Source of the DNA: an uncultured Thiothrix sp. | GTDB lineage: Bacteria > Pseudomonadota > Gammaproteobacteria > Thiotrichales > Thiotrichaceae | Direction of reading: 5' to 3' | Assembly (NCBI GenBank): GCA_964617055.1 | Contig: CAZTUZ010000002.1 | Coordinates: 9,729-73,728 of the forward strand | DNA: 64,000 bases | Part shown: piece by piece, positions 12,236 through 41,597 of the stretch | Numbering within the stretch: the stretch's first letter is position 1 | Layout of the letters: each line of letters starts with the position of its first letter | The notes under the pieces: model-generated | Told to the model about the DNA's origin: nothing | Seen by the model: only the letters and a program-made list of their open reading frames with translations | Databases searched by the model: none | Translations under genes and position numbers: made by a program

Positions 12236-13318
12236 ATGTTGGTGTGGTTGTTTGATTTTTTGAGTCAGTTTTATAGTGGGTTTAATGTTTTCCAATACCT
12301 GACGTTGCGCGGGATTCTGGGATTATTGACAGCATTATTCATTGCCTTATGGACAGGGCCGATGATGATTCGCGCCTTGACAAGATTAAAAATTGGGCAG
12401 TATATTCGCGAAGATGGTCCTCAACACCAAATGAAAGCGGGAACGCCGACGATGGGTGGGGTCATGATTATTCTGGCGATTGCGGTTTCTACCCTGTTAT
12501 GGGCAGATTTAACCAATCGCTATGTGTGGGTAGTTCTAGGGGTCACACTAGGCTTTGGTTTAGTCGGGGGATTAGACGACTATATCAAGCTCAAAATGCG
12601 TCGTAATTTGGGGCTGACGGCACGGCAAAAAACCGTGGGATTGACTATCGTTGGGTTTGCGGCGGCACTTTTCTTATTTTTCACAGCACAAAGCGCGACA
12701 GAAACCACGCTTTACTTCCCTGTTTTTAAAGATGTGTTCTGGAATATGGGCTGGTTGTTTATCCCGTGGGTTTATTTTGTTCTTATTGGTTCGAGTAATG
12801 CAGTCAATCTGACCGATGGTTTGGACGGCTTGGCCATTATGCCAACCATTATGGTGGCGGGTGGTTTGGCTATTTTCTGTTATGTCAGTGGTCATGCCAC
12901 GATTTCGCATTATTTGGCCATGCCACATTTGCCACATGTTGGGGAAGTCATGGTGTTTTGTGCGGCGATTTTTGGTGCAGGTTTAGGTTTCTTATGGTTT
13001 AACGCTTACCCCGCGCAGGTTTTTATGGGTGATGTGGGCGCGTTGGCTCTAGGGGCTGCTTTAGGAATTGTGGCGATTGTGGTGCGCCAAGAAATCGTTT
13101 TAGCCATTATGGGTGGGGTGTTTGTGTTAGAAACACTGTCCGTTATTTTGCAAGTGAGTTACTTCAAAATGACGGGGGGAAAACGGATTTTCCGCATGGC
13201 TCCATTACATCACCACTATGAAAAAGTGGGTTGGCCTGAGCCGAAAGTGATTGTGCGTTTTTGGATTATCACTGTCATTTTGGTGATGGTGGGGTTATCT
13301 ACATTGAAAATCCGTTAA
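12236..13318 (+). CDS. mraY: phospho-N-acetylmuramoyl-pentapeptide transferase
   Basis: 360 aa polytopic membrane protein with [13 protein letters not shown] and HHHYE motifs. Confidence 0.97.
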
Positions 13319-13334
13319 TTGACCTGAGTGCGAG

Positions 13335-14687
13335 GTGAGCATGGCACAGCCAAATCAAACATGGACAACGTTGGTCGTTGGTTTAGGACAAACAGGCTTG
13401 TCCGTGGCGCGGTATTTGCGTAAACAGGGTATTGGGTTCGCTGTGGTGGATAGCCGCGTGAATCCACCAAGCAAAGATGCATTTTATGCGCAATACCCTG
13501 ATGTGCCTGCTCACTTCGGTGCATTTGCCCATGCACCCGAGTTGTTCGCCCATGCGCAAAGTTTGGTGGTTAGTCCTGGTATTGCGATTGCCACACCTGC
13601 AATCAAAGCGGCGGGCGAGCGTGGAGCGGAATTAATTGGCGACATCGAGCTATTTGTTCGTGCCGCAAAAGCTCCGATTGTGGCGATTACAGGTTCTAAC
13701 GGCAAAAGCACGGTCACCACGCTGGTGGATGTGATGGCAAAAACCGCTGGTATGGTGTCTTATGCGGGTGGGAATTTGGGGTTTAGTGCATTGGATTTGC
13801 TGGAACAACCCACACCCGATGTGTATGTGATGGAGTTATCCAGCTTCCAATTGGAAACCACGCATTCCTTGCACGCTGTTTCGGCGGTGGTATTGAATGT
13901 TAGTGAAGATCATTTAGACCGTTACGATTCTTACGCGCATTACGCTTCCTCTAAACAGGTGGTGTACCAGCATTGTGCTTGTGCGGTGGTAAATCGGGAT
14001 GACCCGATTGTGATGGCAATGCCAACGGATACTGCACAAAGCGTGGTCAGTTTCGGTTTGGACGTGCCTGCCGCAGGGCAATATGGTGTGTGCGAACACG
14101 AGGGTAAGCGTTGGCTGGCGAAAGGTGAGCAGTTGTTGTTGGCAACGGATGCAATGAAACTCCCTGGAGAACACAATATTGCTAATGCTTTGGCGTGTTT
14201 GGCATTGGGTGAAGCGGCAGGGATTCCACTTGCCGGAATGCTGGAGGCATTGCAAACCTTTACTGGTTTAGAGCATCGCACGCAATGGGTACGCGAACGC
14301 CAAGGTGTGAATTGGTACAACGATTCTAAAGGCACAAATGTGGGTGCGACATTGGCTGCGTTGGCGGGTTTGCCGAATAAAACGGTGTTGATCGCAGGTG
14401 GACAAGGTAAGGGTGCGGATTTTTCCCCTTTACGCGAAGTGGCAGCCGTAAAAGCACGCGCTTTGGTCTTAATCGGTGAAGACCGTGACAAAATTGCGGC
14501 GGTTGTACAAGGTTACGCGCCGTATGTGTTTGCCGATAGCATGGCGGAGGCGGTGCAATTGGCGGCAGATTTAGCGCAAGCAGGGGATAATGTATTGTTG
14601 TCGCCTGCTTGTGCCAGTTTCGATATGTTCAAAGGTTATGCGCATCGTGGTGACGTGTTTACGGCTGCGGTGAAGGAGTTGGCATGA
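13335..14687 (+). CDS. murD: UDP-N-acetylmuramoylalanine--D-glutamate ligase
   Basis: 450 aa. GLGQTG Rossmann motif, ITGSNGKSTV P-loop, and cluster position. Confidence 0.95.
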   Translation: MSMAQPNQTWTTLVVGLGQTGLSVARYLRKQGIGFAVVDSRVNPPSKDAFYAQYPDVPAHFGAFAHAPELFAHAQSLVVSPGIAIATPAIKAAGERGAELIGDIELFVRAAKAPIVAITGSNGKSTVTTLVDVMAKTAGMVSYAGGNLGFSALDLLEQPTPDVYVMELSSFQLETTHSLHAVSAVVLNVSEDHLDRYDSYAHYASSKQVVYQHCACAVVNRDDPIVMAMPTDTAQSVVSFGLDVPAAGQYGVCEHEGKRWLAKGEQLLLATDAMKLPGEHNIANALACLALGEAAGIPLAGMLEALQTFTGLEHRTQWVRERQGVNWYNDSKGTNVGATLAALAGLPNKTVLIAGGQGKGADFSPLREVAAVKARALVLIGEDRDKIAAVVQGYAPYVFADSMAEAVQLAADLAQAGDNVLLSPACASFDMFKGYAHRGDVFTAAVKELA

Positions 14688-15922
14688 CACCGAATCCACC
14701 TTTACCTGAAGCAGCCAATGGTTGGTCACGTTATGTTGATCGCGACTTGATGCTGGCGTTATTCGCTTTGATTGGTATGGGTGTGGTCATATTGGCTTCA
14801 GCTTCGTTATGGGTCGCGGAAAAACAATACCAAGACGCTTATTTTTATGTGAATCGGCAGATCATGTTCCTGACAATTGGGTTGGGGTTGGGGTTGGCGA
14901 TGTATCAAATTCGCCTAACTTTTTGGGAGCAATTGGGGGTGCGCCTGTTGCCGATTGTGATTTTGCTGCTGATTTTGGTTCTGATTCCTGGTTTGGGCAA
15001 AGAGGTTAATGGCAGTCGACGGTGGTTGAATTTGGTGTTTATGCCGATTCAAGTTTCCGAAATTGCTAAGCTGATTACATTACTCTACTTATCAGGGTAT
15101 TTGATTCGTCATGGGAAAAATCTTGCTACTTCACCCTCTTATCAGCCTCTATTGATTCCGTTAGTAGTGTTGGGGTTAATCGGGGGGTTGTTAATGCTTG
15201 AACCGGACTTTGGTTCAACGGTTGTCATCATTAGCACGGGTTTGGCGTTGCTATTTTTAGGCGGCATACCGTTGAAACGGTTAGGGATGCTATTGGGCGG
15301 TGCGGTATTGATTATGATTCCGTTATCGCTGATGGGTTATCGTGGACGGCGTTTGCAGGCGTATTGGAATCCTTGGGATTACCAATCTGACATCGGCTAT
15401 CAAGTCGTCAATGCACAAATGGCAATCGGTGACGGTGGTTGGTTTGGTGTTGGTTTGGGTGGCGGCGTTCAAAAGTTATTTTACTTACCCGAAGTGCATA
15501 ATGACTTTATTTTTTCCGTGATTGCCGAAGAATTTGGTTTTGTTGGCATGTTGGTTGTGCTGTGTTTGTACGGCTGGTTGGTGGCGCGTGCTTTTGTGAT
15601 TGGTTTTCAAGCGGATAAACACAATCTGCATTATGGTGCATACATCGCTTATGGTATTGGTTTTTGGATCGGTTTTCAGGTCATTATGCACATTGGGGTG
15701 AATTTGGCGATTGTGCCAAACAAGGGTCTTACTCTTCCCTTAATGAGTTATGGTGGCAGTAGTTTAATCATGACCCTAATCGCCATCGCGTTATTGATGC
15801 GAGTCTATCGCGAAACGCAAATTGCCCAGTTTGGTGTACCTGATCGTCGTTCCTCGGCACGCCCTTCGCTTTCAACTTCAACAAAACGTACAACAACAAG
15901 GAGAACAGCGCGTGGCGCATGA
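14684..15922 (+). CDS. ftsW: peptidoglycan glycosyltransferase FtsW (SEDS family)
   Basis: 412 aa polytopic membrane protein with SEDS blocks (PDFGS, HNDFIFSVI, GLTLPLMSYGGSS). Confidence 0.95.
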   Translation: MTPNPPLPEAANGWSRYVDRDLMLALFALIGMGVVILASASLWVAEKQYQDAYFYVNRQIMFLTIGLGLGLAMYQIRLTFWEQLGVRLLPIVILLLILVLIPGLGKEVNGSRRWLNLVFMPIQVSEIAKLITLLYLSGYLIRHGKNLATSPSYQPLLIPLVVLGLIGGLLMLEPDFGSTVVIISTGLALLFLGGIPLKRLGMLLGGAVLIMIPLSLMGYRGRRLQAYWNPWDYQSDIGYQVVNAQMAIGDGGWFGVGLGGGVQKLFYLPEVHNDFIFSVIAEEFGFVGMLVVLCLYGWLVARAFVIGFQADKHNLHYGAYIAYGIGFWIGFQVIMHIGVNLAIVPNKGLTLPLMSYGGSSLIMTLIAIALLMRVYRETQIAQFGVPDRRSSARPSLSTSTKRTTTRRTARGA

Positions 15923-17042
15923 TGCAAATAATGCTGGCCGTCCCGTTTTGATCACGGCGGGTGGCACAGGTGGGCATGTTTACCCTGGTTTAGCGGTGGC
16001 GCGTGCGTTAATCGCTCAAGGTATTCCAGTGGTCTGGATGGGGACACGCAAAGGCCTAGAAGCACGAGTCATTCCCGAAGCAGGAATTGAAATGGCATGG
16101 CTGGAAGTTAATGCCCTGCGTGGCAAAGGTCTGATGACGACCTTGCTCGCTCCTGTGAATTTGGTACGCGCCTTGTGGCAATCCTTCCAAATTATGCGGC
16201 GTTACCGACCTGCGGCTGTGTTAGGTATGGGCGGTTTTGTGGCAGGTCCTGGTGGTTTAGTGGCGGCATTAATGGGGATTCCTGTTGTAATTCATGAGCA
16301 AAATGCCGTGGCAGGTTTAACCAATAAGCTGCTGTCAAACGTGTGTCGTCGCATTTTGGAGGGTTTTCCCCATACTTTTCCTGTCAGTGCGAAAGTCATG
16401 GCGACGGGGAATCCGGTGCGTTTGGACATTGCCAATTTGCCCGAGCCAGCCGAACGTGCTGCTAGCCGAGCACACGAACCAGTCCATGTACTGGTGGTGG
16501 GTGGGAGTTTGGGGGCGCAAGCGTTAAACCAGATCGTGCCGCAAGCTTTGGCATTAATGCCGGAAGGACAACGCCCGATTGTGCGTCACCAAGCAGGGGC
16601 TAAAAACATCGACGATGCGCGTGAACAATACCGCAAAGCGCAAGTCATGGCGGATGTTACGCCATTTATCGAAGACATGGCTGCTGCGTATGCTTGGGCA
16701 GATTTGGTGATTTGTCGTTCGGGTGCGTTGACGGTCGCTGAATTGGCATCCGCAGGCGTGGCGGCGTTGTTAGTACCATTCCCCCATGCAGTTGATGATC
16801 ATCAAACTGCGAACGGTAAGTATTTAGCTGATCATGGCGCGGCATTATTGATCCAACAACGCGATTTAAATGCGGAAAAATTGGCGACGGTTTTAATAGA
16901 TTTGTGTACAAGCCGCGCAAAATTGCAACAAATGGGTACTGTCGCACGGCAACTGGCGAAGCCGTATGCCACAGCACAAGTCGCCGCCATTTGTGCAGCT
17001 TTTGCAGGTTATGATTTTGACAATAAAACGGGTAAGCAATAA
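15912..17042 (+). CDS. murG: UDP-N-acetylglucosamine--N-acetylmuramyl-(pentapeptide) pyrophosphoryl-undecaprenol GlcNAc transferase
   Basis: The ORF track begins at 15822, inside ftsW. The GTG at 15912 is preceded by AAGGAG and gives VAHDANNAGRPVLITAGGTGGHVYP, the normal MurG N-terminus. Confidence 0.92.
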   Translation: MAHDANNAGRPVLITAGGTGGHVYPGLAVARALIAQGIPVVWMGTRKGLEARVIPEAGIEMAWLEVNALRGKGLMTTLLAPVNLVRALWQSFQIMRRYRPAAVLGMGGFVAGPGGLVAALMGIPVVIHEQNAVAGLTNKLLSNVCRRILEGFPHTFPVSAKVMATGNPVRLDIANLPEPAERAASRAHEPVHVLVVGGSLGAQALNQIVPQALALMPEGQRPIVRHQAGAKNIDDAREQYRKAQVMADVTPFIEDMAAAYAWADLVICRSGALTVAELASAGVAALLVPFPHAVDDHQTANGKYLADHGAALLIQQRDLNAEKLATVLIDLCTSRAKLQQMGTVARQLAKPYATAQVAAICAAFAGYDFDNKTGKQ

Positions 17043-18473
17043 ATGAAAATAGGAAGTGACCAGCTCGCGCGTAAACGGATTAATCGCCTGCATTTCATTG
17101 GCATCGGTGGTGCTGGAATGGGCGGGATTGCCGAAGTGGTCGCCAATTTAGGTTATAGTGTTTCTGGGTCGGATTTGGCAGAAAACACCATGACACGCCG
17201 TTTACAATCATTGGGTGTGACCGTGTATAAAGGTCACACTGCGGAAAATGTCATGGGTGCGGATGTTGTCGTGGTATCCACGGCGATTGATAACAGCAAC
17301 CCTGAAATCATTCAAGCGCGTGAATTGCGTTTACCGATTGTTCGGCGGGCGGAAATGCTGGCGGAGTTAATGCGTTTTCGTCACGGGATTGCGGTGGCGG
17401 GTACACACGGCAAAACCACGACTACCAGTTTAACCACCAGTTTATTGGTCGAAGGGGGGTTAGACCCGACGTATGTTATCGGTGGCAAGCTCAACAGTTC
17501 AGCGAGTAATTCCAAACTCGGCACGGGCGAATATTTAGTCGCCGAAGCGGATGAAAGTGATGCTTCTTTCTTACACCTTCAGCCGATGATTGCTGTGGTG
17601 ACGAATATCGATGCTGATCACATGGATACTTATGGCGGCGATTTTGAACGTTTGAAGCAAACATTTGTCGAATTTCTACATCATCTGCCGTTTTATGGTT
17701 TAGCTGTGTTGTGTGTCGATGATGAGCATGTGCGAAGCATTTTGTCAGAAGTGAATCGTCCGATCATTACTTATGGTATTGATCAGGAAGCCGATGTGCG
17801 TGCTACCAATGTGCGTTATGTGGGAACGCAGAGCTTTTTTACTGTCGAATGTGCGCGAACGGGACTTTCTTTGGAGGTCGTATTGAACCTTCCGGGCCGT
17901 CATAACGTCTTGAATGCTTTGGCCGCATTAGCCATCGCCTCTGAGTTGGATGTGTCCGATGAAGCGATTCTGGCAGGTTTGCGCAAGTTCGATGGTGTTG
18001 GTCGGCGTTTCCAAATGTATGGTGATATTGATTTTGGGCGCGGTAAAGCAACTTTGGTGGATGACTATGGTCATCACCCGCGTGAAATGCAAGCGACGTT
18101 GAATGCAGTGCGTAATGCATGGCCTGAACGTCGTTTAGTGTTGGTCTTTCAACCGCACCGTTACACTCGTACTCGCGATTTGTTTGAAGATTTCGCACAG
18201 GTGCTTTCCGAAACGGATGTGTTGGTGTTGATGGATGTGTATGCCGCCAGCGAGAAGCCCATTGCGGGGGCGGACGGTCGTGCTTTAGCGCGGGCGATTC
18301 GTATTCGTGGGCGGGTTGACCCCATTTTTGCTGCTGATGTGGAAGATGTCCCAGGCATTCTGAAACACATTTTACAAGATGGTGATGTCATTTTAACCCA
18401 AGGGGCTGGTAGTGTGGGTGCATTGGCTACTAGTTTGCCCGAAGCTTTGAGTGTCAAAGGGGAATCCGTATGA
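17043..18473 (+). CDS. murC: UDP-N-acetylmuramate--L-alanine ligase
   Basis: 476 aa with [14 protein letters not shown] and [10 protein letters not shown] motifs. Confidence 0.95.
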
Positions 18474-19390
18474 GTATGGATGTTGCACGATTTGGCAAGG
18501 TAGCGGTGTTGTATGGCGGATGGTCAGCCGAACGTCCTGTTTCCTTGAAAAGCGGTGCGGCTGTCTTGAAGGCATTGCAAGACAGTGGTGTAGATGCACA
18601 TGGCATTGATGTTGATCGCAACATTATTCAAACCCTGCAAGCTGGGCAGTTTGATCGCGTGTTCAACATTCTGCATGGAGCAGGTGGTGAAGATGGTGTG
18701 GTGCAAGGTGCGTTAGAAATCCTTGGCTTGCCTTATACGGGTTGTGGGGTGATGGCTTCTGCTATCAGCATGGACAAACTGATGACCAAGCGCGTGTGGT
18801 TGGGTGCAGGTTTACCAACCCCAGCTTATCGTGAATTAACTGCCACCACGGATTTTGCTGCTGTGGTTGCCGAGCTGGGTTTGCCATTAATGGTTAAACC
18901 TGCAACAGAAGGCTCTAGTATTGGTTTAAGTAAGGTTAAAGTTGCTGAAGATTTACCCCAAGCCTATGCCAAGGCCGCACAATGCAGTAAAACTGTCATT
19001 GCAGAACAATGGATTACTGGTGGTGAATACACGGCTGGCATTGTTGCGGGTCAGTCCTTACCACTGATTCGCTTGGAAGTGCCTGGTGAATTTTACGATT
19101 ACGAAGCTAAGTACCTGCGTGACGACACACGTTACCATTGTCCTTGTGGACTGGCACAGGATGCAGAAAACACCATGCAGCAGCTTGCACAGCAAGCGTT
19201 TGCAGCGGTCGGTGGGCGTGGTTGGGGGCGTGTCGATATGATGCGTGATGCCGCAGGTAATGCATGGCTAATTGAAGTCAATACTAATCCTGGTATGACC
19301 GATCATAGCCTTGTGCCAATGGGGGCGCGAGCTATCGGGTGGGATTTTAATACGTTGGTGTTACGCATTCTGGAGACGACATTGTTATGA
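18470..19390 (+). CDS. ddl: D-alanine--D-alanine ligase
   Basis: 306 aa ATP-grasp protein (GGWSAEREVS-like N-terminus, EVNTNPGMT). Confidence 0.95.
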
Positions 19391-20220
19391 GTCCGCGCCG
19401 TCGACCGACCTCGCCTAAACACAAACGTCCTCAACAGTCGTGGCATTTACCGGACTATTCTCCGGCAATGTTGCGTCTGGCGACGGTTGGTGCGTTATGT
19501 TTGGTCGTGATCGGCGGCACGTTATTCACGCGAGCTGTGTTAAATAATCCAGAAAATTTGCGCATTAGTCAGATTGATATACAAGGTAGTCTACAATATG
19601 TAAAAGATACAGAGTTAAGAAAGGTCATTGAAAAATATAGCCAAACTAACCTGTATTTATTGGATGACGATGCATTAGAAGCAGACTTAGAACTACAACC
19701 GTGGGTACGTTCCATTAGTCTGCGTAAGTTATGGCCGACTCGTTTAGTGGTCGAGGTGGAAGAACAATCCCCAGTGGCATTTTGGGGTACGGATCGCCTG
19801 ATGAATCAATACGGTGAATTGTTCCAAGCTGATTTACCCGCTAAGCGCGGTATCTTCCCGCTGTTATATAGCCCTGAGGATAAGGGGCGAGAAATGGGAG
19901 AACGGTACTTAAAAATTCGGGATTGGTTTAAAGGTTTGCCATTAGAAATTGCTGAGTTGACTGAAGATGAAAGTAATGCGTGGCGAATCAAAATTAAAAA
20001 TGGTCCTGAGGTTTTGGTTGGTAATGATGATCAGGAACGCCGCATCCAGCGGTTTAAGGTTGGGTTTCAGCAAGAACTGGCCAGTAAGTTTAGCAATATT
20101 CGACGCATTGATTTGCGTTATACCAATGGGTTTGCCATTGAGTGGAAGCAGTCTCCTGTGAGTGGTCTAGGGGAAAGCGTGCGTCAACTCGGTATTGCTG
20201 GCGAAAGCCGCAGGAGTTAA
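19387..20220 (+). CDS. ftsQ: cell division protein FtsQ
   Basis: 277 aa with a basic N-terminus, one TM and a POTRA-like region. Position is between ddl and ftsA. Confidence 0.85.
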
Positions 20221-20223
20221 ACG

Positions 20224-21471
20224 ATGTCGAAAAAAACGGATCATAACATCATTGTCGCGCTGGATTTAGGCACGTCTAAAGTGGTCGCCTTGGTCGGTGA
20301 AATCAATGATAGTGGACGGCTAGAAATCATCGGATTAGGTTCATATCCTTCGCGTGGTATGAAAAAGGGCGTTGTGGTGAATATCGAATCCACCATTCAG
20401 TCGATTCAACGTGCTGTTGAAGAAGCAGAATTAATGGCTGGTACACAAATTCACTCCGTTTATGTGGGAATTGCTGGCAGTCATGTGCGTAGTTTAAATT
20501 CCCATGGTATTGTCGCAATTAAAGATAAAGAAGTAACAGATAGTGATGTCGAACGAGTGATGGATGCCGCTCGTGCTGTGGCAATTCCGGCTGATCAACG
20601 TATTTTGCATGTCCTACCCCAAGAATATGTGATTGACCAACAAGAAGGTATTCGCGAACCAGTGGGAATGTCCGGCGTGCGTTTAGAAGCACGGGTACAT
20701 TTAGTAACAGCCGCCCATAGTGCCGCACAGAATTTGGTAAAATGTGTTGAACGCTGTGGTTTAAATGTTGAAGATATTATTCTGGAGCAAGTTGCATCCA
20801 GTTATGCAGTTTTAGCAGAAGATGAAAAGGAATTGGGTGTATGCTTAGTGGATATTGGTGGCGGCACAAGTGACATCGCTGTTTTTATTAATGGTTCGAT
20901 CCATCATACCGCAGTGATTCCGATAGCTGGCGACCAAGTAACCAACGATATTGCGGTTGCTGTTAGAACCCCGACCCAACATGCCGAAGAGATTAAAATC
21001 AAGTATGGCCGAGCATTACGACAGTTAGTGACGGAAGATGATCTGATTGAAGTGCCTGGGGTTGGTGAACGTGAGCCGCGTAGTTTGTCAGTGCAAACAC
21101 TGGCCTCCGTGATTGAACCGCGTTATGAGGAGTTGTTTTCACTGGTGCTACAAGAGTTACGCCGCAGTGGATACGAAGAACGTATCGGAGCGGGGATTGT
21201 TTTGACTGGTGGGTCTTCTAAGATGAAAGGTGTGCGTGAATTAGCCGAAGAAGTGTTCCACATGCCAGTGCGAATTGGTATGCCACGGAATATTGGCGGT
21301 TTGCGTGGTGAAGTTGAAAACCCTATCCATTCCACTGGGGTAGGGCTGCTGTTGTACGGGATTACACAGCAGGCTTACGGGGCCAGACGCACTTATTACG
21401 CCACGACAACCAATGTTGCTTCAGATGGGTGGTGGGAGCGCTTGAAGTCTTGGTTTAACGGTAATTTTTGA
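20224..21471 (+). CDS. ftsA: cell division protein FtsA
   Basis: 415 aa actin-like ATPase ([19 protein letters not shown]). The C-terminal amphipathic tail is [13 protein letters not shown]. Confidence 0.95.
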
Positions 21472-21488
21472 CAGTTGGAGAGACGGGC

Positions 21489-22688
21489 ATGTTTGAATTA
21501 ATGGACAGTGCAGCTAAGGGAGCTGTGATAAAGGTCATCGGGGTCGGTGGCGGTGGCGGTAATGCCGTCAAAAACATGTTGGAATCGGGCATCGAAGGTG
21601 TCGAATACATTTGTGCCAATACCGATGCTCAAGCACTGCAAGGCATGGGTGTCAGAACCATGCTGCAATTGGGAAGCTCATTAACCAAAGGGCTGGGCGC
21701 GGGTGCGAATCCCGAAATCGGTCGTGAAGCAGCACTGGAAGACCGTGAACGTATCAAAGAGCTGGTGAGCGGTACGGACATGCTATTCATCACTGCTGGT
21801 ATGGGCGGTGGTACGGGGACGGGTGCAGCTCCTGTGGTTGCAGAAATTGCGCGTGACATGGGGATTTTGACGGTTGCAGTTGTGACCAAACCTTTTCCCT
21901 TTGAAGGTCCGAAACGCATGAAGGCGGCGGATTCAGGGATTGCTGAGTTAAGCAAGTATGTGGATTCCTTAATCACCATTCCCAATCAAAAGTTGCTGAC
22001 TTCTCTGGGAAAAAACGTATCATTACTGGATGCATTCAAAGCCGCAAACAACGTGTTGTTGAATGCCGTTCAGGGGATTGCTGAGTTGATCACCCGTCCA
22101 GGTTTGATCAACGTTGACTTCGCAGACGTGCGTACCGTCATGTCTGGCATGGGTGTTGCCATGATGGGGATGGGAAAGGCGCAAGGTGAAGACCGTGCTG
22201 CTAAAGCTGCCCAAGCGGCGATTTCTAGCCCATTACTGGAAGATATTTGTTTGGATGGCGCGAAAGGGATTCTGGTTAATATCACCGCTGGATTGGACAT
22301 GGGTATCCATGAGTTTGAAGAAGTGGGTGAAGTGGTGCGTCAATTTGCATCGCCAGAAGCTACCGTCGTCGTCGGAACAGTCATTGACCCAGAGATGCGT
22401 GATGAAATTCGCGTAACGTTGGTGGCAACAGGGCTGGAAGAAATGGGGGCTGTGAGTTCCACTCCACCAGCACCATTGCGTGCGGTTGAGCCTGTACAGT
22501 CGCGAGCTTCTCGTGAGAAAGAACGTGTGCGTCAGCTTCAACCTGTGCAATTGGAACCAATGCCAAAAGTGTCGGTCGGAAAGGGAGGCCGCTATGAAAA
22601 TGTGCTGGATGTGCCGCCGATTTACCGCCAAGGGGTATCAGAAGGTAACTTGGATATTCCAGCATTTTTGCGTAAACAGGCAGATTAA
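21489..22688 (+). CDS. ftsZ: cell division GTPase FtsZ
   Basis: The ATG at 21489 (MFELMD...) is preceded by GGAGAG; the ORF track start at 21468 overlaps ftsA. The tubulin signature [10 protein letters not shown] and the C-terminal peptide [11 protein letters not shown] are present. Confidence 0.97.
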
Positions 22689-22920
22689 GATTGCCAACCA
22701 GCCTTGTTCGTCATGCCCGTCAAGCGGTTAAGGTTTGATCTTTGACCGCTTTAAATCTGTCTCCTGAGTGTAATTAATTGAAAGTCAATGGTTATAAATA
22801 GATTTTCAAGAGATTTTTCGTAGCTGGACTAAAGTTTTATTCAGATTCTAATTAACAAAATCCATTAGAATTTGTCCACTGTAAGAAAAGTGATACGCCA
22901 GAACGAAAAGGGGGGACACC

Positions 22921-23838
22921 TTGTTAAGGCAACGAACACTAAAAGCAACCGTATCAACCGTTGGTATAGGTTTGCATTCGGGTAAAAAAGTCGCCATGAC
23001 TTTGCGCCCAGCACCATCAAATACAGGCATTGTTTTTCGTCGTGTTGACGTAACACCACCCACCTTGTTGGAATTACATCCAGAGCGTGTTGGTGAAACC
23101 ATGTTGTGCACCGCGCTTATTGATGGCAATACGAAAGTTGCCACAGTCGAGCATCTATTGTCCGCCTTAGCCGGACTGGGTATTGATAATCTCTATGTTG
23201 ATTTGGACGCGCCAGAAATCCCGATTATGGATGGCAGTGCTGCGCCGTTTTTATACTTATTACTCTCAACAGGGATTGAGGAGCTACTTGCTCCTAAACG
23301 CTTTATTCGTATCAAAAAACCGATTGAAGCGCGTAAAGGTGATGGATGGGCGCGACTCTCGCCCTACAATGGTTTTAAGGCCAGCTTTGAGATCGACTTT
23401 AACCACCCTGCGGTTAATGCAACAACGCAAAGTATCGAAATCGACTTTTCGCATCAAGCTTATGCCAGCGAGATTGCCCGTGCTCGGACATTTGGCTTCA
23501 TGCGTGATGTGGAGTTATTGCGTTCACGCAACTTGGGGTTAGGGGGGAGTCTGGAAAATGCCATTGTGTTGGATGAGTTTCGCGTCTTGAACCAAGATGG
23601 ATTGCGTTATAGTGATGAATTTATTCGCCATAAAATTTTGGACGCAATTGGGGATTTATACACTTTAGGGCACGGTATCATTGGGGCATTCCACGGCTAT
23701 AAGGCTGGTCATGCCATCAACAACCTACTGGCTCGCCAGCTCCTGCAACAACGTGAAGCGTGGGAAATGGTGACGTTGGACGAGAACCAACGTGAACAGG
23801 TGATTTTTGTGGATAACTACGCTCTGGTCGGATTCTAA
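22921..23838 (+). CDS. lpxC: UDP-3-O-acyl-N-acetylglucosamine deacetylase
   Basis: 305 aa with a TTG start preceded by AAAGGGGGG. The N-terminus [23 protein letters not shown] is colinear with E. coli LpxC. Confidence 0.95.
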
Positions 23839-35612: not shown

Positions 35613-36998
35613 ATGTTCGAGAATTTAAGTGAACGTCTGTCGCAGACGGTAAAAAAATTACGCGGTCAAGCCCGTTTGACCGATGAAAACATTAAAGATG
35701 CGCTGCGTGATGTGCGTATGGCACTGTTAGAAGCTGACGTGGCTTTGCCTGTGGTTCGTGAGTTCACGAGTCGGGTGCGAGAGCGGGCAATTGGGCAGGA
35801 GGTATTGGAAAGTCTAACCCCAGGACAGGCATTCATCAAAGTGGTGAATGATGAGCTAGTTGCAATCATGGGTAAGGCCAACGAAACCTTATCGCTCAAT
35901 GCGCAACCACCTGCGGTTATCTTAATGGCGGGGTTACAAGGGGCGGGTAAAACGACCACCGTTGGTAAGTTGACACGCTTTTTAAAAGAACGCCAAAACA
36001 AGTCTGTTATGGTTGTCAGTTGTGACGTATACCGTCCTGCGGCGATTAAACAGCTCGAAACCATCGCAGGGCAAACAGGGGCAGTTTTTTTCCCCAGTGA
36101 AGCCACGCAAAAGCCTGTCGATATTGCCAATGCGGCGGTGGCGGAAGCCAAGCGCAAATACATGGATGTGTTGATTGTGGATACCGCTGGACGGTTACAC
36201 ATCGATGCGCAAATGATGCAGGAAATTCAAGTCGTTCATGCCGCGCTTAACCCCATTGAAACGCTATTTGTTGTGGATAGCATGACAGGTCAGGATGCAG
36301 CCAATACCGCAAAAGCGTTTGGCGATGCGTTACCACTGACAGGGGTTGTCTTAACCAAAGCGGATGGTGATGCGCGTGGTGGTGCGGCATTGTCGGTGCG
36401 TCAAATCACGGGAAAACCGATCAAGTTTATCGGTGTTGGTGAAAAGCTGGATGCGCTTGAACCCTTCCACCCAGATCGTATGGCATCGCGTATTTTGGGT
36501 ATGGGCGATGTCCTGAGCTTGATTGAAGAAGCACAACGCCAAGTTGACCATAAAAAAGCGCAAGCTCTTGCTAAAAAACTAAACAAAGGCAAAGGCTTCG
36601 ATTTTGAAGATTTACGCGACCAAATGCAGCAAATGCTGAAAATGGGTGGCATGAGTGCACTGATGGATAAATTACCTGGTATGGGTAACGTGCCAGCGCA
36701 TTTGAAAGAGCAAGCGAATGATAAAGAAGTTCGGCGCATGATTGCGATTATTAACTCCATGACATTGGAAGAGCGTCGTAATCCCGAGGTTATCAAGGCA
36801 TCACGCAAGCGCCGAATTGCAGCAGGCTGTGGTTTGCAAGTGCAAGATGTAAATCGTCTTCTTAAGCAGCATCAACAAATGAGCCGTGTAATGAAGCAGT
36901 TTTCAAAAGGTGGGGCTTTGCGCAAATTGATGGGCAAAATGAGTAATAAGATGCCACCAGGGGGTGGATTCCCTCCCATCGGCGGTTTTCCGGGGTAA
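35613..36998 (+). CDS. ffh: signal recognition particle protein Ffh
   Basis: The ATG at 35613 gives MFENLSERLSQTVKKLRG. GLQGAGKTTT, DTAGRL and TKADGDARGG motifs and a Met-rich M domain are present. Confidence 0.97.
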   Translation: MFENLSERLSQTVKKLRGQARLTDENIKDALRDVRMALLEADVALPVVREFTSRVRERAIGQEVLESLTPGQAFIKVVNDELVAIMGKANETLSLNAQPPAVILMAGLQGAGKTTTVGKLTRFLKERQNKSVMVVSCDVYRPAAIKQLETIAGQTGAVFFPSEATQKPVDIANAAVAEAKRKYMDVLIVDTAGRLHIDAQMMQEIQVVHAALNPIETLFVVDSMTGQDAANTAKAFGDALPLTGVVLTKADGDARGGAALSVRQITGKPIKFIGVGEKLDALEPFHPDRMASRILGMGDVLSLIEEAQRQVDHKKAQALAKKLNKGKGFDFEDLRDQMQQMLKMGGMSALMDKLPGMGNVPAHLKEQANDKEVRRMIAIINSMTLEERRNPEVIKASRKRRIAAGCGLQVQDVNRLLKQHQQMSRVMKQFSKGGALRKLMGKMSNKMPPGGGFPPIGGFPG

Positions 36999-37211
36999 TT
37001 TAATTGAGTTTTTAGGTATTTAATTGCGCATCTTTGATTATTTGTGATAATAGGGGTTTGCCTGTTCTTTTATCTAGTTGTATGATGCGCATCGTCCAGA
37101 GATTTCCGTGAGGCTGACGAACGGGGTCGATGCATTCAATCTCTTGGATGTTGGTACATAATTTGTGCTGATAAAGTTTCCCTTTCCTTATATCGTGAGA
37201 GAGTTTGAACT

Positions 37212-37499
37212 ATGAAAATGAAATCTCAATTAACTATCGCTGGTCTGTTGTTCGCTGGTTTGTTGGCAACTGGTTGTAGCCAACAACAAGCTGCTGGTGG
37301 TCAACAACAAACTGCTGCTCCAGAAACTCCTGCTGCTCCAGCTGCTCCAGCTGCTCCGGTTGCTCCAGCACACCCTGTTGCTCCAGTACGTCCAGCTCCA
37401 GCTCCAGTTGTGCCTAAAGTTAAAGCGAAAGGCAACTACAAAGGTCCAGTCGCAATGGATCCAGCTTCTAAAGCTGCTCTGCAACAATACCAAAAGTAA
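37212..37499 (+). CDS. small Pro/Ala-rich lipoprotein, paralogue 1
   Basis: 95 aa. Signal peptide plus lipobox LLATGC|S, a (PAA)n linker, and the C-terminal block PKVKAKGNYKGPVAMDPASKAALQQYQK. Own SD (GAGAG) and terminator. Codon choice (GCT/CCA/GGT/CGT) looks like that of highly expressed genes. Confidence 0.75.
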   Translation: MKMKSQLTIAGLLFAGLLATGCSQQQAAGGQQQTAAPETPAAPAAPAAPVAPAHPVAPVRPAPAPVVPKVKAKGNYKGPVAMDPASKAALQQYQK

Positions 37500-37555
37500 T
37501 GCTTGCATTGGTACACTAGTTCCCGCTTGATCTAAGTAGGAAATGGTTATCTGAA

Positions 37556-37586
37556 AGCCCCTCGTTATGACGAGGGGCTTTTTTTT
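37556..37586 (+). terminator. rho-independent terminator of lipoprotein paralogue 1
   Basis: agcccctcgt (37556-37565), loop tatg, acgaggggct (37570-37579), then T7. Confidence 0.85.
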
Positions 37587-37735
37587 GCCCAAACCTCACA
37601 AATCTCCTACCCATTCGTCGGCGTTTCTGTATGTTTTGTGCTACATAATGATAGGTAGCAATGATAGAGGCAACTCGATAAGGCTACACTGCAAAAACTT
37701 ACTGACTTTTTAGTGAATAAATTGAGGCTAAAGCC

Positions 37736-38047
37736 ATGGAAATGAAGTCCAAATTGACTCTTGCGGCATTGATTTGTGTTGGTTTGCTGGCAACAGGTTG
37801 TAGTCAACAACAAGCTGCGGGCAGTCAACAGGTTGCACAACAACAAAGTTGTAATTGCGAAAAAGAAAAACCTGTTACTCCGCCTCCTGCTCCTGTACAA
37901 CCGCCTGTCAAACGTCCTCCACCACCTGTCAAACCTGTCGTTCCGGTTGCACCTGTTGTTCCGCCTGTTAAAGCCAAAGGCAACTTCAAAGGTGCGGTGA
38001 AGATGGATGAGTCATCTAAAGCCGTGATGCAACAGTATCAACGTTAA
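37736..38047 (+). CDS. small Pro-rich lipoprotein, paralogue 2
   Basis: 103 aa. MEMKSKLTLAALICVGLLATGC|S, a CNC motif, a poly-Pro/Val linker, and the C-terminal block PPVKAKGNFKGAVKMDESSKAVMQQYQR. Confidence 0.75.
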   Translation: MEMKSKLTLAALICVGLLATGCSQQQAAGSQQVAQQQSCNCEKEKPVTPPPAPVQPPVKRPPPPVKPVVPVAPVVPPVKAKGNFKGAVKMDESSKAVMQQYQR

Positions 38048-38064
38048 TCGCTGAGCAACACGAC

Positions 38065-38104
38065 ACCGACCTTTACTTTATTTGGGGTAGGGGTCGGTTT
38101 TATG
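38065..38104 (+). terminator. imperfect hairpin after paralogue 2
   Basis: accgacc (38065-38071) pairs with ggtcggt (38092-38098), followed by tttta. This is weaker than the other two terminators. Confidence 0.4.
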
Positions 38105-38323
38105 GTTGCATTTCCTGCGAACTCGTTTTATTTTTGGGATGTGTTGTAAATTTGCACAACATGGACGTGTCTATCGTGATGTTATCACCGTGTCGCTGAG
38201 CAGTTTTTTAGGTAGATTCGTGTTAAATTGGTGCGGAGTGTTTTCCTAAAGCAATTTTGTGGTTGTTTTGCTACACTCTTTGAAATCAGTGCCTTCCCTT
38301 CAACAATGAAAGAGACCAAGACG

Positions 38324-38719
38324 ATGAAGATTAAATCCCCACTCGCAATCGCAGCTTTAATTATGGCAGGTATGTTCGCAACAGGTTGCCAACAAATGAG
38401 CCAGCAACAGACGGCTGCTCCTGCAACCACAACAACGCCTGCGACAGCTACAACAACTCCCGCTGCTGGTGGTTGTGATCCTAAAGCAGATAAAAGCTGC
38501 CATACTCATCCTCCTGTTCCAGCTTGCACGAACTCCATTACACATAGCCATCAGTTCACTGATCCAAGCCATACTCACCACTATAGCTGCAAACCTGGTA
38601 TTCCACACAAAGGTACTGGTCCTGTGATTCCAAAAGTAAAAGCAAAAGGCAATTTTAAAGGGCCAGTCAAGATGAACCAAACATCTCAGGACGCACTGAA
38701 GCAATATCAACAAAAATAA
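38324..38719 (+). CDS. small lipoprotein, paralogue 3, with Thr-rich and Cys/His-rich insert
   Basis: The start was chosen by analogy with the paralogues (MKIKSPLAIAALIMAGMFATGC|Q); the ORF track starts at 38228. The C-terminal block is IPKVKAKGNFKGPVKMNQTSQDALKQYQQK. Confidence 0.7.
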   Translation: MKIKSPLAIAALIMAGMFATGCQQMSQQQTAAPATTTTPATATTTPAAGGCDPKADKSCHTHPPVPACTNSITHSHQFTDPSHTHHYSCKPGIPHKGTGPVIPKVKAKGNFKGPVKMNQTSQDALKQYQQK

Positions 38720-38786
38720 GTTGATAGCTAATCCATGAGGCATTTCATTGTTAATCTTGTAAAAAGTTAGCAAATGCATTGTGTCG

Positions 38787-38820
38787 ATACCCAACCATTG
38801 CTCGGTTGGGTATTTTTTTG
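38787..38820 (+). terminator. rho-independent terminator of paralogue 3
   Basis: atacccaacc (38787-38796), loop attgctc, ggttgggtat (38804-38813), then T7. Confidence 0.85.
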
Positions 38821-38972
38821 GTTGAAATTCGGAATAAGGCAAATTACGCTAAGCGACATTGGGAACTTATGGGCATGTTCTCAAGTCAGGGCTATTAATA
38901 GGCGTGAACCTGACAGGTTGCATTTACCTATCGAGTGTTCTTCTGGTTTTAACTACATCAAGTGCAAGTTTC

Positions 38973-40220
38973 ATGAAAAAATTTTTTAGCCTAGTGCTTT
39001 TACTAACCGCTGCGACGTTTATGCCGTCGATGGCCTCCGCTGACGTATGGCCTAATGAGAACGCATGGGATGACACATGGGAAAGTCGTTACCATGATTG
39101 GGTGCGTACTAACTGGAAAGATGACATCTTTATGGATGCATCTAAGCCTATCTACTATCAGTTTGAAAATGACTGTGCTGACGCGGTTTACATGATGCGC
39201 TTGATTTTCGCGTATGAGAACCGTCTGCCATTCGTGATTAATAATCGCGATAAAGCGGGTAAACAGATTAGCAATAGCATGGGAACGTGGGATAATCTCG
39301 CGCCACCACAACGGGTTCGCCAGTTCATGAACTATGTGGCTGACATGACCAGTAGTGCATCCTTGCCAAACGATACTTACCCTGTAGCACTCAATGACAT
39401 TAAACCAGGTGATGTATATGTCGCCCCAGGGGTTCACTCTTACCAAATCGTGGAAGTGACAGATGCAGGTATCGCTGAAGTCATGGCTTCTACAACCCCT
39501 AAACAAGCGCGTTATTTGTTACGCACGCCATCGTTTCCTTTCTATGTGCCAGAAGACAAGCGCATGGGTGATGGTTATCGCCGTTTCAAACAACCACAAA
39601 ACATCATGAAGCCTGCCAGTGCCCAACCTGGGTATAGCGAAGAGCAATTCCAAGTGGCGGCGGAATTAGGTGGCGACTATGTAGCGTTTACGGACATTAT
39701 TTCTAAAAAGCTGGGTCATCGTGAAGAACGTCCAGATGAAAAAACCCAACGTTTATTATTGGCCTTGTGCATGTATGCTAATGATCGCAGCGTGTATGTT
39801 TACGATGCGTTGTACTATTTGCAAAAGATCCGCAATGAAGGTCGTCGTTGCATGAATGCAAAAGAATACGATGACCATTCAACGCCAGGTCGCGATAAAC
39901 GTTTGAATATGTTCTTTAGTTCCATTCGTCGTCATTTGGATCGCGTCGGACGTTTTGATCCGCGTTCGCAACCCGCGCGTTGGGCAAAAGCGGTATTCTC
40001 TAATGACCAGCCACCACCATCTGAAATGCAGAATCTAAATAATTTCTGCCAAGTTCAAATGACGTTGGTCGATGAGGGTGAACGTAATTACTACATGACA
40101 TTGCGTGAGTTGCGTCAAAATGTTGAAGCAGGTACGTTAAGTTCTGACCCACATGCGCCATTGGAATACCGTTGGGGTATTGCCAAACAGCCGTTTGTCT
40201 CGGACTGTCCAACGTATTAA
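38973..40220 (+). CDS. secreted protein of unknown function, possible papain-fold (NlpC/P60-superfamily-like) Cys/His hydrolase
   Basis: The ATG at 38973 gives MKKFFSLVLLLTAATFMPSMASA|DVW, a signal peptide. The motifs NDCADAVYMMRLIF and IKPGDVYVAPGVHSYQIV parallel GVCTDTVIRSY and YQPGDLVTW..EHIGIVV of the neighbouring DUF1287 protein. Confidence 0.5.
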   Translation: MKKFFSLVLLLTAATFMPSMASADVWPNENAWDDTWESRYHDWVRTNWKDDIFMDASKPIYYQFENDCADAVYMMRLIFAYENRLPFVINNRDKAGKQISNSMGTWDNLAPPQRVRQFMNYVADMTSSASLPNDTYPVALNDIKPGDVYVAPGVHSYQIVEVTDAGIAEVMASTTPKQARYLLRTPSFPFYVPEDKRMGDGYRRFKQPQNIMKPASAQPGYSEEQFQVAAELGGDYVAFTDIISKKLGHREERPDEKTQRLLLALCMYANDRSVYVYDALYYLQKIRNEGRRCMNAKEYDDHSTPGRDKRLNMFFSSIRRHLDRVGRFDPRSQPARWAKAVFSNDQPPPSEMQNLNNFCQVQMTLVDEGERNYYMTLRELRQNVEAGTLSSDPHAPLEYRWGIAKQPFVSDCPTY

Positions 40221-40300
40221 GCTGCATTCAGCTTAGGTTTTCCCCCATGCTTTTACGCTGGGGGAGACTGGCTGCATCAACATAACAATAATGATTGCTC

Positions 40301-40329
40301 TGACTATCGTGAATAGCATTCGGTATAAT
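40301..40329 (+). promoter_or_regulatory. candidate sigma70 promoter of the DUF1287 gene
   Basis: TGACTA (40301-40306), 17-nt spacer, TATAAT (40324-40329). Confidence 0.4.
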
Positions 40330-40425
40330 GCGCCTCGCGTAGATGACTTCAACGTATGTATGCAAATGGTTAAACGGGCTTTTCGGAGTTTAAGGATTTC
40401 TGTTGTTGAAACAGGAGTGGGGTAA

Positions 40426-41169
40426 ATGAGTAGTGTTCTGAGATTATCACGCTTAACGAGATTGAGTGTATTAGTCTATTTGGTTTCGGGTGTCGGCTTA
40501 AGTGGGTTGAGTGGTTGTTCTAGCCAATCGCAATCAACAGGGCAACAACAACAACAGCAAACCGTGCCGATGCAACGTTCAGGTACGGCGCGTACTAATG
40601 TTGCCACGCCAGAGCGTTTGTCTTACGCGGCTTTGGATCGCCTGCGTCACCGTGTGGTTTATAATGGCACATATGTGCCTATTGCTTATCCTAACGGAGA
40701 CGTACCCAGTAACATGGGAGTTTGTACCGACACGGTTATCCGTTCTTACCGTAAGCTAGGTGTTGATTTGCAACGCTTGGTTCACGAAGATATGGCACGG
40801 AATTTCTATGCCTATCCCAATTTGCCAAAATGGGGATTGAGTGCGCCAGACCCGAATATCGACCATCGTCGGGTGCATAACCTGAAAGCTTTCTTTACAC
40901 GTCGAGGGGCGCGTCTGCCCGTCTCTGGCGATCCGCGCGATTACCAACCAGGTGATTTGGTAACGTGGAATCTGGGTGGGGATCAAGAGCACATCGGTAT
41001 CGTTGTGAATCGCAAATCGACAGCAGACCCAGACCGTTACCTCATTGTGCATAACATTGGCGAAGGTGAAAAAATGGAAGATGTACTATTCCAAATGCCG
41101 ATCACCGGACATTACCGTTTCTTCCCCGGTTATGTGCCTTCTGCTGCACAATATGCGTCCGCTAACTAG
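40426..41169 (+). CDS. DUF1287-family lipoprotein
   Basis: 247 aa with lipobox LSGLSGC|S. The blocks VVYNGTYVPIAYPNGDVPSNMGVCTDTVIRSYRKLGVDLQRLVHEDM and PDPNIDHRRVHNL match my memory of DUF1287. Confidence 0.7.
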   Translation: MSSVLRLSRLTRLSVLVYLVSGVGLSGLSGCSSQSQSTGQQQQQQTVPMQRSGTARTNVATPERLSYAALDRLRHRVVYNGTYVPIAYPNGDVPSNMGVCTDTVIRSYRKLGVDLQRLVHEDMARNFYAYPNLPKWGLSAPDPNIDHRRVHNLKAFFTRRGARLPVSGDPRDYQPGDLVTWNLGGDQEHIGIVVNRKSTADPDRYLIVHNIGEGEKMEDVLFQMPITGHYRFFPGYVPSAAQYASAN

Positions 41170-41198
41170 TCAGTAAATGACGTTCCCATTCGCATGAT

Positions 41199-41227
41199 AA
41201 AAGCCTCCCCATCGTGGAGGCTTTTTG
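41199..41227 (+). terminator. rho-independent terminator after the DUF1287 gene
   Basis: aagcctcc (41201-41208) pairs with ggaggctt (41216-41223), followed by tttt. Confidence 0.7.
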
Positions 41228-41342
41228 TTATAAGCGGTGTAATCAATACTTCACTTTTTCTGAAATTAACGTACAATCTCGCGTTTACTTCGGGGTGGGG
41301 TAGTCTGCCCTGCGTTTACTGAATTTATTTTAAGGTTTTGCT

Positions 41343-41597
41343 ATGGTCAACATTCGTCTGGCTAGAGGTGGCGCGAAAAAGCGTCCTTTTTATCACATCG
41401 TCGTTAGTGATAAACGTAAACCACGTGACAGTGGCTACATCGAGCGTATCGGTTATTTCAACCCAGTTGCGCGTGGTCAAGAAGTGCGTCTGCACATCGA
41501 GCAAGACCGCGCTGACTACTGGTTAAAATGTGGTGCACAACCGACTGAGCGCGTGGCTAAGTTGCTGAAAGAAACAACGGAAAGCGCGGCAGTTTAA
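41343..41597 (+). CDS. rpsP: 30S ribosomal protein S16
   Basis: 84 aa: [21 protein letters not shown]... Confidence 0.97.

Follow-up and report, generated by a model that had tools for sequence, protein, structure and literature searches.

Small lipoproteins encoded between ffh and rpsP in Thiothrix: a Thiotrichaceae family of putative outer-membrane-to-wall tethers

Three small lipoprotein genes, which we call T1, T2 and T3, lie in tandem between ffh and rpsP in a stretch of 64,000 nucleotides (nt) from an uncultured Thiothrix sp. (contig CAZTUZ010000002.1 of assembly GCA_964617055.1), hereafter the window. Their products belong to a lipoprotein family that is specific to the Thiotrichaceae, and they end in a common tail of 28 amino acids (aa), which seems to be a PG_binding_1 domain in reduced form. 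The function that we infer from homology, architecture and synteny is that of a tether or spacer between the outer membrane and the cell wall, in which a lipid anchor, an extended Pro-rich linker and a basic, miniature peptidoglycan-binding tail derived from PG_binding_1 would be joined in one chain. We judge the chances of this reading to be about even. The three genes are as follows.

37212..37499, plus strand: T1, lipoprotein gene, 95 aa, with lipobox LLATGC (Cys22), the conserved block at residues 68-95 (nt 37413-37496) and the C-terminus QYQK.
37736..38047, plus strand: T2, lipoprotein gene, 103 aa, with the Cys pair SCNCE, the block at residues 76-103 (nt 37961-38044) and the C-terminus QYQR.
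38324..38719, plus strand: T3, lipoprotein gene, 131 aa, with a Thr-rich segment and a Cys/His module, the block at residues 103-131 (nt 38630-38716) and the C-terminus QYQQK.

The interval between ffh (35613-36998) and rpsP (41343-41597) holds five plus-strand genes: T1, T2, T3, sec415, which encodes a secreted protein, and a gene for a DUF1287 lipoprotein. An earlier model-made reading of the letters (the sequence-only reading) had described an insert of 4.3 kb between genes that are usually neighbours. The interval is indeed 4344 bp long. E. coli K-12 has ffh directly beside rpsP, flanked on the far side by ypjD and yfjD, and the window carries homologues of these last two in the same positions; relative to that gene order, the 4344-bp stretch is therefore an insert. 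The three open reading frames of 95, 103 and 131 aa are present as the sequence-only reading had them. A longer T3 start at 38306 (MKETKT) was rejected, since this upstream ATG reads ACG or CTA in other species, and we therefore place the start at 38324.

Alignment of the three proteins bears out the tripartite design that had been claimed for them, namely a common signal peptide and lipobox, dissimilar linkers and a conserved tail of 28 aa. The proteins are alignable at their ends only. At the N-terminus they share the pattern M.[MI]KS.L..A.L...G...ATG-C followed by S or Q and a Gln-rich stretch, with M1, K4, S5, the lipobox A-T-G-C22 and Q24 invariant; the residue at +2 after the lipid Cys is Ser in T1 and T2 and Gln in T3. 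At the C-terminus the consensus is P.VKAKGN[YF]KG[PA]V.M[DN]..S....[QK]QYQ, with an invariant core P..VKAKGN.KG.V.M...S....QYQ and a last residue that is K in T1, R in T2 and K in T3. The tail motif as first claimed largely stands, except for its 'S..A(L/M)' part, which fails in T2 (SKAVM). The linkers are unrelated: 46 aa in T1, Gln-rich and then (PAA)n/PV; 54 aa in T2, with SCNC and poly-Pro/Val; and 81 aa in T3, Thr-rich with the Cys/His module. Pairwise blastp E-values among the three range from 4e-14 to 5e-19. At the DNA level, identity is 77% in the leading 95 nt and about 72% in the closing 90 nt, and the middle is unalignable; as likeness of this order is confined to the two ends, the triplication is old.

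Lipoprotein status was read from the sequence pattern, taking [LVI][ASTVI][GAS]C after a signal peptide as the lipobox. All three proteins have a basic n-region, a hydrophobic core and such a lipobox (MKMKSQLTIAGLLFAGLLATG-C in T1 and its equivalents in T2 and T3), and G21 and C22 are invariant across 58 aligned homologues. By the E. coli rule, a lipoprotein with Ser or Gln at +2, as opposed to Asp, should be sorted to the outer membrane in a Lol-dependent way. T1-T3 are accordingly predicted outer-membrane lipoproteins. The AlphaFold2 (AF2) model of T1 is a disordered Pro-rich chain with a single helix of 11 residues (residues 84-94) and no coiled coil; a fold search with so disordered a model was judged not worthwhile.

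Homologues were sought at several scales. A profile of T1-T3 found 166 relatives in 5.8 billion proteins; those with an organism label are all from Thiothrix or an unclassified gammaproteobacterial metagenome-assembled genome (MAG), their database labels read 'hypothetical' or 'lipoprotein', and none has a precomputed Pfam domain. When 1.84 billion cluster representatives were searched exhaustively with HMMER, only 63 matches came back at E<=1e-3; the entries P0162, P0167 and P0173 from this search were rejected as chance matches to KTK.N.KG..MM. When one genome was scanned for each GTDB species, 54 loci were obtained, all in the Thiotrichaceae (Thiothrix, Thiolinea, Thiofilum, Cocleimonas and related MAGs), the closest being in an uncultured Thiothrix sp. 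at 95% identity. The search for the tail as a motif or hidden Markov model (HMM) in other genomes, which the sequence-only reading had called for, has thus yielded a family, and one confined to the Thiotrichaceae. T1-T3 had no match in Pfam, NCBIfam or the PDB sequences, and the full-length family profile found nothing real among the PDB sequences. Sub-threshold Pfam and NCBIfam matches (PhiKZ_gp35, Resistin, New_glue, and LpoB at 12 bits) were dismissed as noise, and we do not accept the names 'LpoB' and 'Lpp' that JGI gives to some homologues, since they lack the support of any profile. One database protein, P0143 (93 aa), joins an N-terminus like that of ribosomal protein L7/L12 to a T1-type linker and tail, and is most likely a chimera from assembly or gene calling. 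In the literature on PG_binding_1 lipoproteins, on Thiothrix lipoproteins and peptidoglycan, and on outer-membrane tethering, no description of the family was found.

The locus is conserved along with the proteins. T1, T2 and T3 each have their own orthologues across Thiothrix, and the order ffh, lipoprotein array, sec415, DUF1287, rpsP, rimM is kept in about 40 genomes; in Thiolinea, sec415 is located within the array. Since the lipoproteins, sec415 and the DUF1287 gene are linked, and at least one of these genes resembles a wall hydrolase, the insert can be regarded as a conserved envelope gene set.

What the tail might bind is suggested by distant members of the family. Scanning all loci for the KAKG.YKG core led to proteins in Cocleimonas and other marine Thiotrichaceae that have the same lipobox followed by SQQQ (CSQQQ), one to three His/Cys modules of the T3 type, and a sec415 homologue (59% identity) directly downstream. 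Their tails, ...VDV.ALQRKLKAKGYYKGPIDGVVG..TR.ALK.F.NR, score 27-43 bits with the Pfam profile PG_binding_1, whose gathering threshold is 23. On this profile they span positions 3-39 of 57, that is, the first two of its three helices, and end at position 37-39. All of the 60-odd Cocleimonas-type proteins carry a precomputed PF01471 assignment and some are named 'peptidoglycan-binding protein' by NCBI; searched against the PDB, a profile of their tails picks out the domains with which SleB (E 2e-10) and SltB3 (E 6e-6) bind peptidoglycan.

The Thiothrix-type block is connected to these tails in several ways. When 51 Thiothrix/Thiolinea blocks were compared with the Cocleimonas-type tails by hhalign, the probability was 97.7% (E 2e-12, 28 columns), the pairing being KVKAKGNYKGPVA--MDPASKAALQQYQK in the block against KLKAKGYYKGPIDGVVGPGTRGALKKFMNR in the Cocleimonas-type tail. 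An HMM built from the Thiothrix-type blocks alone finds PG_binding_1 tails at E 5e-5 to 5e-3 among 14,371 six-frame reading frames, and the listed higher-scoring matches without the exact core motif are family members too. Among the 1.84 billion representatives, the full-length family profile reaches Cocleimonas-type members at E 1e-7 to 6e-4, and the reverse search from the Cocleimonas-type side recovers T1 of the window. We read these comparisons to mean that the whole family may have lost helix 3, and that the Thiothrix/Thiolinea branch may in addition have exchanged helix 1 for the linker and shortened the DG..G loop. Among the outcomes that would have counted against its proposal, the sequence-only reading had listed membership of the block in a known family with a different role. 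The family does appear to be a known one, PG_binding_1, and the role that it implies, non-covalent wall binding, is close to the function that had been proposed.

A second line of argument comes from gene organization outside the window. The genome scan also returned Thiothrix loci that match the tail only, and these encode a fourth paralogue, T4. It consists of a Sec signal without a lipobox, a short two-Cys module (..VKNS.GEC....YG..PEGCE), a Pro/Ala linker and the same tail of 28 aa. In nine of ten loci it is followed by a twin gene whose product repeats the signal and the module and also has a Pro linker, an OmpA domain (88 bits) replacing the tail. These pairs are located as follows.

Loci L018-L024, L026, L031 and L033: T4/OmpA-twin pairs, for example 7614-8093 and 8226-8957 in L020.

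The tail therefore occupies the place that the peptidoglycan-binding OmpA domain has in the twin, which points to peptidoglycan as its target independently of the PG_binding_1 homology. T1-T3 themselves have no match to OmpA_C (PF00691); the domain occurs only in the tandem twin of T4 at those other loci.

Taken together, these observations suggest the following scheme. The Sec/LspA signal and the lipobox LLATGC would yield a lipidated Cys, and Ser or Gln at +2 would direct the protein to the inner leaflet of the outer membrane. The Gln-rich segment and the extended Pro-rich linker, 46-81 residues in all, would measure 14-25 nm at full stretch, which would be enough to bridge the distance to the peptidoglycan layer. 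The strongly basic tail of 28 aa, made up of a KVKAKGNYKGPV turn and a short helix (S..A.QQYQ) and apparently derived from PG_binding_1, would then dock on peptidoglycan non-covalently. In this scheme the paralogues would be spacers that differ in length and chemistry: T1 plain and probably abundant, T2 with a Cys pair, and T3 with a His/Cys segment that probably binds metal. In T4 the same tail is joined to the short two-Cys module in place of the lipid.

Several observations weigh against a wall-binding tail. T1-T3 have no Pfam match to PG_binding_1 at E<=1, and the block profile alone has no real match in the PDB; its sole 'matches' there, designed double-psi beta-barrel (DPBB) proteins, were dismissed because they share KG.V.MD.ASR only. 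Direct hhalign comparison of the block with the SleB fragment gives the right register without significance (probability 2.4%). The PG_binding_1 link is thus transitive, since it rests on intermediates, although these clearly belong to the same protein family. The block keeps about 28 of the 57 domain positions, lacks helices 1 and 3 and has an eroded DG..G..T motif, and therefore cannot form a three-helix fold alone; neither the T1-T3 block nor the Cocleimonas-type tail is a complete PG_binding_1 three-helix bundle. AF2 confidence over the tail reaches only 70-80 in pLDDT (predicted local distance difference test), and the block may have acquired a partner other than peptidoglycan. The likeness of the N-terminal module of T4 to RmpM of Neisseria is one of architecture, a likeness in sequence being putative. 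The promoter assignments, set out below, are at the level of consensus only.

If the tail has another partner, the products of the neighbouring genes are candidates, and the genes are listed here.

38973..40220, plus strand: sec415, gene for a secreted protein of 415 aa, a conserved partner of the lipoprotein family with weak, sub-threshold similarity to DUF4846.
40426..41169, plus strand: gene for the DUF1287 lipoprotein, with lipobox LSGC, a Gln-rich N-terminus and a Pfam DUF1287 score of 219 bits.

The two products are possibly wall-modifying enzymes. The DUF1287 lipoprotein, retained at about 35 loci in its place between the array and rpsP, has weak Pfam similarity to the cell-wall hydrolase families CHAP, Amidase_6 and NlpC/P60. 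The Gln-rich stretch after its lipid Cys (CSSQSQSTGQQQQQQ) resembles that of T1-T3. At every locus of the array the sec415 gene follows or interleaves the lipoprotein genes, the Cocleimonas-type loci with their different genomic context included, and its product is 58-89% identical across the family. In its AF2 model (pLDDT 85), considered together with conservation, the invariant Cys68 opens a helix and the invariant His155 opens a strand; this placement, with the sub-threshold DUF4846 similarity, gives a hint, and only a hint, of a papain- or NlpC/P60-like enzyme. Foldseek comparison of sec415 with the PDB had no match at E<=0.001 and NlpC/P60 chains only at E about 3, and a sequence search of the PDB with sec415 was empty. 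At one locus of an uncultured Thiotrichaceae (L032, 5619-14829) the order is metG, a lipoprotein gene with a PG_binding_1 tail, sec415, lptD, surA and pdxA, so that the lipoprotein-sec415 pair sits beside the outer-membrane biogenesis genes lptD-surA.

These genes give some substance to the view that the lipoproteins are adaptors comparable to LpoA, LpoB or NlpI, whose tail binds and regulates a wall enzyme (sec415, the hydrolase-like DUF1287 lipoprotein or a penicillin-binding protein, PBP) instead of peptidoglycan. The strict linkage to sec415 in two genomic contexts and the conservation of DUF1287 at the ffh-rpsP locus would be expected of such adaptors; so would a strongly conserved sec415 whose Cys68 and His155 are placed as in papain or NlpC/P60 folds, with its weak DUF4846 and NlpC/P60-like signals. 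A lipid anchor, a long disordered linker and a small C-terminal module also make up the architecture of LpoB, and the tail is too small for the complete PG_binding_1 fold. However, there is no homology to LpoB (TIGR02722 scores 12.3 bits against a cut-off of 110.55), the match of sec415 to the NlpC/P60 fold is not significant, T4 loci have no sec415 nearby, and the exchange of tail and OmpA domain between T4 and its twin points to peptidoglycan itself. We consider an adaptor role rather unlikely on this balance.

The sequence-only reading had gone further than a tether in general and had compared the array to Braun lipoprotein and OprI. The general idea has fared well: T1-T3 are lipoproteins whose Pro-rich spacers are long and whose C-terminal module is conserved, and a peptidoglycan target is backed by the PG_binding_1 link and the T4/OmpA exchange. 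The specific analogy has not, as T1-T3 have no match to Pfam LPP (PF04728) at E<=1, the T1 model lacks a coiled coil, and the terminal Lys on which the analogy turned is not conserved. This residue is the feature to test, because attachment by L,D-transpeptidase depends on one C-terminal Lys, which is both necessary and sufficient, while the Lpp box otherwise tolerates many substitutions (PMC12274547). Among 120 close homologues, the last residue is K in 29 of 46 T1-type, none of 14 T2-type (all R or H) and 53 of 60 T3-type proteins. Over 299 distinct family proteins it is K in 39%: in 5 of the 75 short-block Thiolinea-type proteins (mostly Q or Y otherwise), 36 of the 80 T1/T2-like, 59 of the 70 T3-like, 10 of the 13 T4 and 7 of the 61 Cocleimonas-type proteins (mostly R otherwise). 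By comparison, K71, K73, G74, G78 and Y93 (T1 numbering) are invariant or nearly so, and the family is therefore not defined by its terminal Lys.

A Braun/OprI-type covalent tether, in which an L,D-transpeptidase would join the epsilon-amino group of the terminal Lys of T1, T3 or T4 to meso-diaminopimelic acid and the Pro-rich rod would replace the coiled coil, seems improbable in view of these counts. The presence of Lys at the end of T1, T3 and most T3-like and T4 proteins is itself weak evidence, since a terminal Lys is found in over 20% of the periplasmic proteins and lipoproteins of E. coli (PMC12274547). It does gain something from the sufficiency of one Lys, from the orthologues that end in YKK, the last three residues of Dickeya Lpp, and from the position of the remnant, which by docking just upstream would bring the Lys next to the stem peptides. 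Covalent linkage of the Lys-ending T1, T3 and T4 is possible; attachment across the family as a whole is probably non-covalent. A mixed arrangement independent of Lpp, which we think improbable, would have the tail dock on the stem peptide first, after which an L,D-transpeptidase or sec415 would covalently fix a terminal or invariant internal Lys of T1, T3 or T4 (...YQK or ...YKK). If this dual mode were true, the family would supply polyproline 'rulers' of several lengths, the K-ending ones covalent and the R/H-ending T2 non-covalent, that set the width of the periplasm.

The linkers of T2 and T3 raise another question. The Cys/His module of T3 occupies residues 51-89 (nt 38474-38590) and reads C..C-HTHP..P.C..S.THSH....P.HTH.Y.C. 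In relatives (L016, L025, L037 and L041 among other loci) a module some 35 aa long with the pattern (W).H.HP..P.C..S..H.H....N.H.H.Y.C is present in 0-3 copies per protein. It matched no Pfam family and is probably a metal-binding or disulfide-stabilised mini-domain. Some Thiolinea-type linkers (L047, 10140-11060; P0140) have a different repeat, CWHGRN.KGQCNP.P, in 2-4 copies in its place. That the proteins are periplasmic metal or redox (or sulfur-globule-related) proteins, in which the T2 Cys pair and the T3 His/Cys modules do the work and the tail is a localisation signal only, is very unlikely: the module is conserved and repeated, a DCSKC or CxC pair is widespread and the family is confined to mostly sulfur-oxidising filamentous bacteria, but T1, which has the strongest expression signature, lacks any Cys or His module, the tail is the only element common to every member, and no known metal-binding family was matched in Pfam or NCBIfam.

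The expression signature of T1 lies in its codons. Ala is encoded by GCT in 19 of 23 cases (background 21%), Pro by CCA in 10 of 14, Thr by ACT in 4 of 4 and Gln by CAA in 10 of 10. Orthologues in 12 species retain this bias even though their linkers differ, with GCT fractions for Ala of 0.56-1.0 against 0.11-0.38 in neighbouring genes. The claim that T1 uses the codons of abundant proteins is therefore sound; the bias fits high expression without proving it.

Each gene had also been credited with a promoter-like element and an intrinsic terminator of its own. The signals found are these.

37058..37086, plus strand: promoter-like site for T1, TTGCCT-17-TATGAT, just past the ffh stop, from a consensus scan; putative promoter.
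37553..37587, plus strand: intrinsic terminator after T1, a 13-bp GC-rich stem followed by T8, -25.6 kcal/mol, z -6.3.
37639..37649, plus strand: extended -10-like box TGCTACATAAT upstream of T2, conserved upstream of T2/T3 orthologues; putative promoter element.
38065..38102, plus strand: intrinsic terminator after T2, a strong hairpin with a T-run, -27.5 kcal/mol, z -6.2.
38269..38279, plus strand: extended -10-like box TGCTACACTCT upstream of T3, kept across species at about -50; putative promoter element.
38786..38821, plus strand: intrinsic terminator after T3, weaker, -16.6 kcal/mol, z -2.5.

The terminators stand, with a hairpin and T-run after all three genes, the last being weaker. 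The promoters stand in part. Boxes conserved between species are present: TTGTATGAT, located after ffh, for T1; tagTTGTATGATgcgc upstream of T1 orthologues, kept in more than 12 Thiothrix loci; and two boxes common to T2 and T3, 'TGCTA(C)ATAAT' near -97 and GCTACACT near -50 (about 50 nt upstream of the ATG). A sigma-70 consensus scan of the whole array region, however, gave a site count no higher than chance, as judged against shuffled sequences. The leaders of T1 (37175-37211) and T3 (38287-38323) share a conserved TTTCCCTT(T)CC element; a Shine-Dalgarno-like purine stretch, GAGAGAG or AAGAGA, follows it 15-25 nt downstream. Pairing between these elements could hide the ribosome-binding site. 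The T1 5' untranslated region folds no better than shuffled sequence (z -0.3), and an Rfam scan of 36900-41400 had nothing near threshold. Elsewhere in the window, gene order and the N-terminal sequences make positions 6189-23838 look like a complete division and cell-wall (dcw) cluster, which runs from rsmH via mur and fts genes as far as ftsZ and lpxC and is followed downstream by secA and argJ-like genes. The cluster seems ordinary, with no apparent connection to the lipoproteins.

How the outer membrane is fastened to the wall in most other Gram-negative bacteria is still being worked out. The finding described here concerns one bacterial family, and its function is one that we infer only. 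If the tether reading is correct, the family would add a new design, in which a lipid anchor, a proline-rich rod and a domain remnant of 28 residues are combined, with three or four variants that differ in length and chemistry. If the tail alone binds peptidoglycan, it would be among the smallest natural wall-binding modules and an example of a folded domain reduced to a short linear motif. As a very well conserved but uncharacterised secreted protein, sec415 merits study as well. Reports of Lpp are limited to four other gammaproteobacterial orders (bioRxiv 10.1101/2021.05.31.446380), which makes a different tether in the Thiotrichales plausible.

Against known systems, the closest comparison is with PG_binding_1 itself (PF01471; the SleB N-terminal domain, PDB 6tci and 4fet, and the SltB3 C-terminal domain, 5ao8). 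The window block aligns to L.a.GYY.G.iDG..G..T..A...FQ and keeps K/L-A-K-G-x-Y-K-G-P-V/I, the S/T and the A-L/M-x-x-Y/F-Q helix. It differs in having about half of the 57 residues, a Pro-rich linker in place of helix 1, no helix 3 and a DG..G loop shorter by 2-3 residues. The setting differs too: the motif ends a lipoprotein spacer here and is carried on a hydrolase in the known examples, and the window proteins score below every Pfam threshold. With Lpp and OprI the family shares small size, an outer-membrane lipoprotein that is probably abundant, a Lys end in T1 and T3 with a Tyr near it, and a presumed link between outer membrane and wall; some Lys-ending members end in YKK, as Dickeya Lpp does. 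In contrast to Lpp and OprI, it has no homologous sequence, no trimeric coiled coil and no conserved terminal Lys, and its attachment is probably non-covalent. LpoB, the outer-membrane lipoprotein activator of PBP1b, likewise has a lipid anchor, from which a long disordered linker spans the periplasm and leads to a C-terminal module of small size, but it is not homologous, and the C-terminal module of T1-T3 is dissimilar and much smaller.

Tethers with a Pal/OmpA C-domain resemble the proposed arrangement in their outer-membrane anchor, flexible linker and non-covalent peptidoglycan-binding module, which is putative in T1-T3, and the twin of T4 carries an OmpA domain. They differ in that a fold of about 100 aa (OmpA_C) stands where T1-T3 have a 28-aa remnant of PG_binding_1, and no TolB partner is implied here. 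T4 and its twin are most like RmpM of Neisseria and PapA-type periplasmic OmpA proteins, with which they share a Sec signal, a short two-Cys N-terminal region, a Pro-rich hinge and a wall-binding C-terminus, putative in T4, which has the 28-aa block instead of OmpA_C. RmpM's N-terminal region is thought to associate with porins (PMC3084935). The T4/OmpA gene pair amounts to a natural experiment on the equivalence of the two modules.

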